A stretch of 64,000 nucleotides of DNA from Eledone cirrhosa. Its lineage: Eukaryota. The DNA is taken from contig OZ024751.1 of the NCBI GenBank assembly GCA_964016885.1, forward strand, positions 30,876,001-30,940,000. The letters are read 5' to 3'. Of the stretch, positions 12,701-17,100 are shown piece by piece. The first letter of the stretch is position 1. Each line of letters begins with the position of its first letter. The notes beneath the pieces were generated by a model. It was not told the origin of the DNA. It searched no databases and saw only the letters and a list, made by a program, of their open reading frames with translations. Both the position numbers and the translations under genes were made by a program.

Positions 12701-14109
12701 CTTACAAAAGTTGACAATTGAGACTTATCATTGAAGATCTCATCTTCCCAATGTTTCTTTATTCAATTGAAACTTATCAATAAAAATCCCAACTTCCCAA
12801 CTGTTCAATTGTAATTTATCATTAAAGATCGCAACTTCCTAGTATCTTTCTCTGTTCAATTGAGACTTATCAATAAAGTTCACAACTTCCCAATATGTTT
12901 CTCCATTCAGTTTTCAGACAAACGACTTAGATGTTTAATTAATTATATATAATGTGTATTGGGGTAACTGGATCATCTTTGCATGCAAGTGTCAAAGAAG
13001 GTGTAAATGGGAATTTCCAGAGTGTCTGTCGTTGATGTATAGTAGCTTCGGATATATCAGAACATAAAATAACTGAAACTAAGCCTGTGTGGGCACAATA
13101 CATTGATTTGTATTTATTTCTTTAGTTCAATTATTTTTATGTTTAATTTCAGCATCGCTTTGTCTGTTCAACTCTTACTGAAGCTTGATAGAGTTGATCT
13201 TGCTAAGTAAGTATTCACTTTTTACTTTGCATCATTATCATCATCACCGTTTAATGCTTATTTTCTATGCTTGTATGAGTTAGATGGGCTGTTGTTTTAT
13301 GAGGCGTGACAGGCTGTTGTGTTATGAGACTAGACAGACTGTCATGTTATGACACTAGACAGGTCAGATCGTCAAGTCTTGCTTATATGATCTATTTTGG
13401 GCTTGGTTTTCCATAACAGGATGTACTTCCTAATGTCATTCACTTTTGTCTATTGATCTGATAGATTACTGTCTATTTAATTTATCTCTCATTCTCTTTC
13501 ATTCTACAAATTTATTATGTTAAAAGGACTTTGGGTTCTATTTTAATTTCTTTTCAGAAAAGAGTTAAAGAAAATGCAGGATGCTGATGAAGATAGCATT
13601 TTAACCCAGTTAGCATTAGCTTGGTTTAATTTAGCTGTGGTAAGAGATATTATTAGTTTTGATTCTGTAATTAATCAATTAAAGTTGAATAAATTAATAA
13701 ACTTAAAATATATATATATAAACATTTTACTCTTTCTGATGAAGTGCAATGTTTTTACGTAATGCTTGCGATTGAGCATGGGACTATGCAGTCAACGCTA
13801 GTAAACTGATATTGTGCAAAAATATGTTAAAGAACGAACTCTAAATAAATTTTTTCCTTCTAACCACTTCTTCTTGCCTAGTTTTTCCTGTACTATACCT
13901 ATTACTATTATATATATATAGGGTGGTGGATTGGCAGTATCGGTAGAGGGTCGGACGCCGTGCTTTGACGCATAGAGTTACGGCCCTTGCTATTCTGAGT
14001 TCAAATCCCGCCGAAGTTAACTTTGCCTTTCATCCTTACGGGGTCGATAAAATAAAGTACCAGTAATGCACTGGGTATTTGCTGGCCTTGTGCCAAAAGT
14101 AGAAACAAT

Positions 14110-14142
<33 letters not shown>

Positions 14143-17100
14143 AATAAAATAAAATAAATAAGTCAAATGTTTAAAATTTGGCTTCATTTATTACTGCTAT
14201 ATATATTTCGGTGACAGCCATCTTTGGCTGTGACCTCTTCAGGCAGTCCGAATTAGTGTGGTAGAGACGAGTACACATGTTGTTGAGGTGTTTAACTTTG
14301 TCAATACTCTGATATGCCCAGTTCCTGACTGAGGAACTGGAATCATATGATTCCAGTTCCTCAGTGAAATAACAACCCAACCAGGAACTGGACATATCAG
14401 AGTATTGACAAAGTTAAACACCTCAACAACATGTGTACTCGTCTCTACCACACTAATTCGGACTGCCTGAAGAGGTCACAGCCAAAGATGGCTGTCACCG
14501 AAATATATATAGCAGTAATAAATGAAGCCAAATTTTAAACATTTGACTTATTTATTTTATTTTATTTTACATTACTCCGGAGTAACCAAACCAACCTGTG
14601 CACTTCGTGGAGTGCTCCAATCTGCATACTGAGGTGTTGGTATACAACCAACATATACTCAAAATATATATATATATATATATAATTGAAAATTTTATAC
14701 AGTCTTTTCAAATTTTCAGAATATTTAAAATTTTAGTTAGTTGTTTAGGTATTAAGCTATCTATCAAACTAAAAGTATTTCAGTTGTTAATAAATATCAA
14801 ATAATTTGTTATATTGTTGTTACTAACTGACTGTTACTCACTTCTTAGATTACAGTAAATATTTTACTCATAATCTGATAAAATAACAACAAACATTTTG
14901 TGTACGTAGTTGATCTCTAAGACTCTTACAAAGTGCTGAGAAGATGAAGTTAATGTAATGTAAAGAATGATGTGCTAATGTGTAAGGATGCTATAAAATA
15001 GGGTGAAAACCTCTAAAAGATGTTAAAAGAAATTGCTAGCGGTCACTATGAGGAATGCTTATTGAGAAACACAAAATTCTAACATATTTGATATGTTTTG
15101 ATTCATTATTTGTATATTTATATATATATATATATATATTTTTAAATGTTTTGGTTTATTTATTTTTACATTACTTAGGGTGGTGAAAAATATCAAGATG
15201 CTTATTACATCTTTCAAGAGCAAGCTGATAAACATGCATCCACTCCACTATTATTGAATGGTCAAGCTGCTTGTTGTATGGCCCAAGGACATTTTGAAGA
15301 TGCTGAGTCTCTACTTCACGAGGCTATGGACAAGGTGAGATGAATACAAGAATTTGTTTTGTTCTCATTTTATATTTCAATGAAAAGTAAGAAGTTTTCA
15401 ACACATTCCTGTATATTTATATATAATCATCTGGCTGTTGATTAGCAGTATCAGTTGAGCATCAGACACTATGCTTTGCAGCATAGAGTTATGACCCTTT
15501 ACGTTCTGAGTTCAAATCCCGCCAAGTTTAACTTTGCCTTTCATCCTTACAGGGTCAATAAAATAAAGCACCAGTAATGCACTGGGGTAATTGCTGGCTT
15601 TGTGCCAAAAGTAGAAGCAATTATATATAATCATCATCATTGTTTTTATATCTACCTTGCCATGCTGGCATGAGCTTGACATAGAATTTCTAAGCAGTGT
15701 TTTATAGTCTGATACCTTTTTTGACACCAACCCATTTAGTCAAGATTAGATATATCTATTCTAAAAACTGAGATACACACAGGATAATAGTATTTTTCAG
15801 AAATATATAATCACTGTTTGATATGTAAGTGGGGGGGGAAAACAAAACAAAATATATTTCGGTCACCTGTAAGAGAAACAGAAGTTTTTGTGCAATGAAC
15901 CAGAAAGAAATATAATCAAATGTGTGTGTGTGTGTGTGTATATATATATGTGTGTATACGTGTGTGCATCATCATCGTCATCACTGTTTAAAGTCCATTT
16001 TTACACGCTGGCATGTATGTGTGTATATGTAAATGTGTGTGTATATATGTGTATAATCATTAATATTTGGATTGGCAGTATCGGTAGAGGGTCGGACGCC
16101 ATGCTTTCCAGCATAGTTACGTCCCTTTACGATCTGAGTTCAAATCCCGCCGAGGTTGACTTTGCCTTTCATCCTTACGGGGTCGATAAAATAAAGTACC
16201 AGTAATGCACTGGGTAATTGCTGGCCTTGTGCCTAAAGTAGAAACAATTAATATTACTTATCTTTTACTATCAGATCATTTGTTTATTAATGAACTAGAC
16301 AAATCCAATTCATTCTCCTTTGGAGAGTGCTTTCTGTTGGCTTACTGTTCAGAATATGGAAATGAATTCAAGAAGTTGAAATTGATTATTGTGATTGCCA
16401 GAAGAATGGAGGAAAGAAATACAAACAGTTGTAAAATTATTAAATAAACTATAATAAAAAAAATCAAAAAAATCACTTGACATAGATAGATATGTAGGTA
16501 GGTATGTAGATAGATAGATACAGAAAGAGTTATATATAGAGGTACAAATCAATGTGTAATTGATATATTTGCTAATTAATATGAATTATATGGTTATATT
16601 GTACAGAATAGTAACAATCCGGAGACCCTTGTCAACATGATTGTCCTCTCACAACATTTGGGTAAAGCACCAGAGGTAAGTAAACATTCTTCTATAGAGT
16701 TTTGTTTCTTCTTCTCCCACTTATTCCTGGGAGGGTCATGTGTGCTGAGTTCTCAAACATTCCTTCCAGTGTGTCCTGTCAGAAGCAATTTCTGCAATCG
16801 ATCTGGCTGGATCGCCTCAGCAACACCAGCTGAGCTCGTGTATGTTATCCAACCATTTTGCTCGGGGGCCTAACCCTGGGTCTCCTGCCAGTTGGTTTTG
16901 CTCATAAAATTTGTCCAGTGATTCTTTCCTGAGACATTTTAACCTCAGTCCATAATATCAGAGCTGCGAGCTCTCAATTCGGAGAAGTAGCAGCTCCACC
17001 TGGAGCGACTCTAAAATTCAAAAACTTCTAAACTGAAACAATCATTAAGGTATTCTCCTATTTAATTATTATTACATTTCTAATCAAGGTGCATTATTTT

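Follow-up and report, generated by a model that had tools for sequence, protein, structure and literature searches.

A fold-back with two hammerhead motifs in a COPE intron

We analyzed a 64-kb window, that is, the whole stretch of DNA under study, around an inverted repeat that lies in an intron of the COPE gene (Table 1). The exons on either side of the intron match the Pfam family Coatomer_E, and genome-wide both matches to this family lie within the window. Since these exons match Coatomer_E on the plus strand and enclose an intron with GT..AG ends, the right-hand of two hammerhead motifs in the intron is sense to COPE, confirming an earlier reading made from the letters alone (the sequence-only reading), in which one motif was said to be sense to the COPE pre-mRNA. 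A contig of run X4, a run whose library type is unrecorded and whose sample may be without the insertion, contained the spliced junction of the two exons at a depth of 158. Splicing of the intron probably proceeds as usual.

Table 1. Features of the COPE intron and of the insertion in it (positions in the 64-kb window)
Feature	Position	Strand	Remarks
COPE exon upstream of the intron	13558..13639	+	Pfam Coatomer_E, E 1.1e-07 on 13559-13639; GT donor at 13640
COPE intron with the insertion	13640..15178	+	GT..AG ends; contig of run X4 joins both exons
Presumed SINE-like short interspersed repeat, (TA)n end is the insertion target	13909..14117	+	Two more copies, 15420-15629 and 16048-16256
Inverted tail-less pseudo-LTR copy (left arm)	14140..14346	-	16 nt missing near apex; terminates at the tail-less end point of the family
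Type I hammerhead, antisense to COPE	14193..14247	-	Predicted cut after 14198; mirror copy of 14462..14516
Junction palindrome, 38 nt	14328..14365		Centre 14346/14347; 5' truncations and fold-backs of the family cluster here
Direct pseudo-LTR copy (right arm)	14347..14569	+	14347-14664 matches the 3' end of ORF-bearing copies at 90-97.5% identity
Type I hammerhead, sense to COPE	14462..14516	+	Predicted cut after 14511; descriptor and covariation; 53-nt core in 1026 exact copies
AATAAA followed by a T-rich run	14517..14522	+	Also inside the duplex; putative poly(A) signal
One-sided tail, 95 nt	14570..14664	+	Same sequence as the 5' leader that ends 56 nt before the element's ATG (L040, L046, L047)
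(TA)n right flank of the insertion	14664..14684
COPE exon downstream of the intron	15179..15298	+	Pfam Coatomer_E, E 9.7e-14 on 15182-15298; 3' end open-ended

The near-perfect 188-bp inverted arms described from the letters alone were recovered as 14140-14327 and 14382-14569, and they match at 187 of 188 positions with the sole mismatch at 14392/14317. The 54 nt between them look like a spacer but do not form a loop, since the true symmetry centre of the fold-back, at 14346/14347, falls within the 38-nt junction palindrome. Because the left arm lacks 16 nt (the partner of 14366-14381) and the centre is at 14346/14347, the duplex aligned from this centre is 207 bp long with one mismatch and one 16-nt bulge. 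The insertion stands in the (TA)n end of the first of three copies of a repeat that we take to be SINE-like. The AATAAA directly 3' of the sense hammerhead is likely the poly(A) signal of the inserted element; it is possibly a bigger hazard to the host transcript than the ribozyme, and it too is buried in the duplex.

We then analyzed the two hammerhead motifs. The plus-strand motif consists of a 5-bp stem I, CUGAAGA at 14467, a stem II of 3+7 bp with a C.C mismatch, GAAA, and a stem III of 2 bp closed by an AUAU loop; the core CUGANGA / GAAA / UH with stems I to III is that of a type I hammerhead. A relaxed descriptor found exactly two hammerhead sites in the window, one in each arm, compared with 0.02 per window in 50 Markov resamples. 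An Rfam search of 13000-16000, along the lines of a check proposed in the sequence-only reading, returned no hammerhead family at E<=5, and chance miRNA and snoRNA matches were all that appeared; the case for a hammerhead is therefore built on the descriptor together with covariation. A match to an Rfam model is a convenience rather than a defining feature, and this motif may lie outside the curated models. Six hand-picked related motifs were compared, and 6 of the 17 pairs showed two-sided changes (0 of 500 shuffles), a result that is partly circular because the motifs came from a descriptor demanding pairing in stems I and II. The palindromic character of stem III, which the descriptor did not demand, was seen by eye, in different letters, in most of the further hammerhead families that these loci contain. 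Conservation of individual hammerhead columns was set aside as evidence of selection because 40 of the loci had been chosen by the exact core. Taken together, the descriptor and the covariation bear out the proposal of a type I hammerhead in each arm.

Many other hammerhead families were present in the loci examined, including L011, L024, L037, L040, L049, L076, L079 and L084. To judge from these motifs, the genome carries a large and diverse hammerhead set.

The parent element and its copies

The 53-nt hammerhead core had 1026 exact occurrences in the genome, and the reversed control had none. A search with 14380-14665 yielded 1734 candidates. Scoring covered 40 of them, and the full-length matches besides the query locus, 39 in number, were 97-98% identical. 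In longer copies the unit lies about 1.1 kb downstream of reverse transcriptase (RT)-endonuclease ORFs, to which it is connected through a UTR of about 1.1 kb. Pseudo-LTRs with a hammerhead lie 3' of the ORFs, and partial copies are found directly 5' of the ATG in L040, L046 and L047. The window unit was 90% identical to the pseudo-LTRs of the long-ORF copies and 95-97.5% identical to others. The unit is thus continuous with the 3' end of ORF-bearing elements, which agrees with the Penelope pseudo-LTR origin suggested by the sequence-only reading.

The open frame of L040, 894 codons, encodes P0002 (an 892-aa ORF); the ORF is present in the parent copies and absent from the stub in COPE. Hydra-clade elements are characterized in PMC8557442 by RWK, by DKG changed to DKT, by a CxCx5C linker, and by CxxC and CxH flanking a conserved E and N. 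P0002 has RWK at 39, DKT at 122, YRDD, CxCx5C at 754, CxxC at 852 and CxH at 880, so that all of the features RWK, DKT, CxCx5C, CxxC and CxH are present, and by eye it resembles the printed Hydra alignment. By these motifs and the by-eye comparison of alignments, the element is assigned to the Hydra clade. A Naiad or Neptune type had been our first assumption for the end of the ORF and was dropped upon the motif comparison.

Sequence searches of Pfam and PDB did not recognise the RT of P0002 or of alignment A1, so the identity of the RT was settled by a fold search. The predicted model of P0002 (60-sequence alignment, mean pLDDT 79) had TERT 3du5 as its best Foldseek match (E 1.6e-9), which places a telomerase-like RT in the single ORF of the parent copies. 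Pfam gave no GIY-YIG match on full-length P0002; on P0001, the C-terminal part from L021, GIY-YIG PF01541 matched with E 1.6e-4 and 22.4 bits, just under the cut-off of 22.6, and we counted the C-terminal GIY-YIG endonuclease as present on the basis of P0001. Residues 483-613 and 698-747 of P0002 were long low-confidence linkers, which account for the ORF being about 180 aa longer than most of the listed homologues.

By its continuity with these copies and by their motifs, the unit in COPE comes from a Hydra-clade Penelope-like retrotransposon, of which it comprises the 3' pseudo-LTR and the 95-nt tail; the insertion site is a (TA)n run. A genome search with P0001 gave 63,886 first-look candidates, with several open frames of 850-900 codons. 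Hydra-type elements are thus abundant in this genome, and some look intact. The element family was not found in the literature searched, which comprised among others PMC13282606, bioRxiv 10.64898/2026.07.22.740005 and part of one supplement. Pieces of a PIF1-like helicase ORF lie near one family copy (L114:7870-9336) and likely belong to a Helitron.

Architecture of the insertions and a model of their origin

From the exact-core list we examined the first 40 loci, and from the apex list the first 20. Two family hammerheads stood head to head at 15 of the 40 exact-core loci, always with the tail on exactly one arm. This count was reached from 17 labelled loci by leaving out L099, where the second motif is from another family, and L100, where both arms are tailed and 1.8 kb apart; it is biased upward, given that loci with two hammerheads were likelier to be picked by exact match. 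A single hammerhead was labelled at 21 of the 40. Both arms carried a hammerhead at 14 of the 20 apex loci. Genome-wide, the exact palindromic apex (central 24 nt) was found at at least 194 loci, compared with at least 409 exact matches that read through.

The ends of the copies were sharply placed. Among 61 hammerhead-bearing pieces, the 3' end was at the tail start in 30 and at the tail end, 95 nt away, in 27, and 52 of these 57 canonical 3' ends adjoin a TA run, in line with the (TA)n insertion preference of Hydra elements. The 5' end lay within 16 nt of the apex site in 25 of the 61. The recurrent form is thus an inverted 5'-truncated copy with a one-sided tail of 95 nt. PMC8557442 reports the inverted truncated copy, the one-sided tail and the microsatellite bias for Penelope-like elements, PMC3846280 reports junction palindromes and a predominance of head-to-head arrangements in Penelope insertions, and PMC4209133 describes dual hammerheads in Schistosoma that lie on opposite strands at distances of about 100-700 bp. 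Each feature of this layout, from the inverted copy and the one-sided tail to the palindrome at the junction and the hammerheads on both strands, has therefore been published already.

The two arms of a locus shared rare variants more than re-paired arms did (10 compared with 0.8; 0 of 2000 permutations); the test left out the near-duplicates L005 and L019 and is inflated by subfamily structure. The sharing suggests that both arms derive from one source element or were homogenised afterwards. L060, L061, L062, L065, L067, L068 and L072 are spacerless palindromes with no arm-to-arm differences over 121 nt and 3-8 differences from the majority; they may be a young subfamily or a product of arm homogenisation. 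Rarer geometries were also seen. The hammerhead pairs at L087:4740-5065 and L085:4654-5868 are tail to tail, with the sense copy transcribed before its antisense partner, and L112:4853-6489 holds two consecutive fold-backs with two same-strand hammerheads about 900 nt apart, where a dimer in cis is conceivable.

We considered whether the fold-back moves as a fixed unit, as a non-autonomous retrozyme or a MITE-like element would. The unit is ORF-less, short and young, and many loci have the same apex, all as expected of such an element. However, the junctions and arm lengths differ from locus to locus, the tail is found on either arm, and in longer copies the unit passes without a break into the 3' UTR and ORF of an autonomous element. 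Retrozymes, moreover, are tandem: the window has one hammerhead copy per strand and hence no tandem same-strand pair of the kind that marks a non-LTR retrozyme, and by eye no same-strand pair within 5 kb was found among the first 100 of the 1026 cores listed. We therefore regard a fixed mobile fold-back as very improbable.

An artefact of assembly or a long-read chimera was also weighed, as palindromes are a known source of both. The junction 14327/14328 is private to this locus and is bridged by none of the 32 listed pieces of 538, which would fit a chimera. Against this, the element sequence is all that is inverted, with the COPE exons collinear across the insertion; the two arms are told apart by one substitution and a gap of 16 nt; and the tail is confined to one side. 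In addition, 31-mers of the apex occur in read-derived contigs at a depth of about 1000-1900, compared with 6.7-12.4 for the unique flank. These 31-mers are abundant in contigs of X1-X3, which may come from the same sample as the assembly. An assembly artefact is thus an unlikely origin of the fold-back, and a chimera scarcely deserves credence.

Long double-stranded RNA is an established substrate of ADAR editing, and editing of the fold-back is plausible by analogy. The sole listed difference at or above 10% was A>T at 14486, in contigs that drop rare variants and with X4 having no coverage of the unique intron; since it was present in three runs of one organism, we take it as a family variant.

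Taken together, the locus is real, and it is an ordinary stub left by a Hydra-clade Penelope-like element, of which the genome has such stubs at many other sites. It is very probably a 5'-truncated, head-to-head inverted insertion in the (TA)n run of the COPE intron, whose sense hammerhead is predicted to be inactive, being both a lone weak monomer and buried in a duplex. The observed part of this explanation comprises the family identity, the copy numbers, the two fixed 3' ends, the palindromic junction and the (TA)n flanks. As for the process, the GIY-YIG endonuclease of the element would nick the (TA)n run, and the RT would begin on the element RNA at two fixed internal positions, at the tail end for one arm and at the tail start for the other. 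Each copy would extend as far as the palindromic site, which lies about 120 nt upstream of the hammerhead core, and the two would be joined at this site.

Two routes of joining can be envisaged. We lean toward priming from both cut DNA ends followed by annealing at the palindrome, since the second arm stops at a fixed point, which makes twin-end priming the simplest. In PMC11167929, the anole protein extended both strands in vitro, and two RT start sites define the tail. Snap-back self-priming, proposed for Penelope insertions in PMC3846280, is the route that we favor less, at somewhat below even chance. The variants shared by the arms do not tell twin priming from snap-back or from later conversion between the arms.

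Masking of the sense hammerhead and comparison with known systems

The sequence-only reading held that the upstream antisense arm would pair with the ribozyme and form a built-in safety catch that makes the insertion tolerable. The first half of this agrees with ViennaRNA predictions: with the upstream arm present, the pairing probability of every hammerhead stem, stem III included, fell below 0.0001. In COPE pre-mRNA the antisense arm would be made first and would then zip up with the sense arm. The second half, a special and needed catch, was not supported. The head-to-head geometry is general (15 of 40 loci) and has been published as a by-product of how these elements insert, and it places the antisense arm first in the transcript at any locus, whichever strand is transcribed. 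Stem III of the lone monomer, without the arm, has a predicted probability of about 0.006, or 0.6%; the design is of the dimer type, as had been proposed for the motif, and the relaxed descriptor found no second sense copy in the window. Masking is thus likely a by-product of insertion geometry rather than an adaptation, and the folding model predicts that the motif on its own is too weak to need a safety catch.

Single minimal type I motifs of this class gave no detectable cleavage in vitro in the assays described in PMC4209133. ViennaRNA ignores tertiary contacts and the minimal hammerheads tested were without the 2-bp stem III of this motif, so that the monomer may have some activity. Slow intronic ribozymes were without effect on splicing, according to PMC10919898 citing Fong 2009.

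We also weighed whether the catch has been selected, with unmasked sense copies cutting host pre-mRNA, for example after trans-activation by the element protein, and with fold-backs surviving mainly in sense introns of essential genes. Masking is thermodynamically strong, long open ORFs of the family exist in the genome, and in PMC11167929 an anole Penelope hammerhead needed the element protein for activity in vitro. The survey of host exons comprised 150 of 157 splice-flanked candidates at 40 loci and 257 open frames from 746 candidates at 24 mostly solo loci, and it gave two credible host exons. Both solo copies placed near them are antisense, L103 near a CaMKII_AD exon and L022 near an LRR exon, which is the direction predicted by purging of unmasked sense copies; with n=2, the sample is too small for a verdict. 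The AATAAA at 14517, or else splice signals, could just as well produce an antisense bias. Furthermore, the geometry is found at a large share of loci wherever they are located, the monomer fold is predicted to be unstable with no partner in cis in the window, and the cut site is merely 667 nt from the 3' splice site. We consider a selected catch improbable. A related proposal, similarly remote in our estimate, is that the element protein would trans-activate hammerheads on host pre-mRNAs, that unmasked sense copies would be purged, and that fold-backs would be tolerated with both ribozyme and poly(A) signal locked in double-stranded RNA. If so, intronic hairpins would be selected self-silencing insertions and a source of ADAR substrates and of small RNAs against the family, and a purge of sense solo copies from introns would show transposon ribozymes acting on host pre-mRNA.

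Returning to the by-product reading, the single stub in COPE matters little, as it is one of many and the layout of its family is published. The family is a useful natural data set on Penelope insertion: its 3' ends fall at two sharp points separated by 95 nt, and its palindromic junction is a sharp hotspot. It also shows that Hydra-clade elements, of which a small number of families have been described, can be both numerous and recently active within a single genome.

The closest known system is the Hydra clade itself, as presented by Craig et al. 2021 (PMC8557442) and its supplement. The element studied here is alike in RWK, DKT, CxCx5C, CxxC/CxH and the C-terminal GIY-YIG. It also targets (TA)n and has a canonical hammerhead close to its 3' end. 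In the supplement, Penelope-13_HM likewise has a 5'-truncated inverted copy and hammerheads on both strands. Our element differs in size, with a unit of about 4.2 kb compared with generally <3 kb, and in its 95-nt tail compared with the usual 30-40 bp. The octopus family Hydra-1_Obim of the supplement is a different family with another hammerhead sequence; unlike it, the element here has an 892-aa ORF with the long low-confidence linker 483-613 and a 3' UTR of about 1.1 kb.

Pen2a and Pen3a of Adineta vaga, as described in PMC3846280, are alike in the head-to-head inverted pseudo-LTR with the tail on one pseudo-LTR only, and Pen3a has a 38 bp palindrome at the inverted junction, as here. In contrast to Pen2a and Pen3a, the whole ORF is lost at the COPE locus, and a target-site duplication is unreadable inside the TA run. 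The minimal hammerheads of metazoan Penelope-like elements (Cervera and de la Pena 2014, PMC4209133) share the long stem II, short stem I and palindromic stem/loop III, whereas our motif, in the predicted fold, retains a stem III of 2 bp and joins the core to stem II without an unpaired base. Finally, the intronic CPEB3 ribozyme, as covered in PMC10919898, is also a self-cleaving motif that sits in sense orientation within a host-gene intron; it is of the HDV type and has measured activity, whereas the motif in COPE is one of more than 1000 young transposon copies with no sign of a host function.
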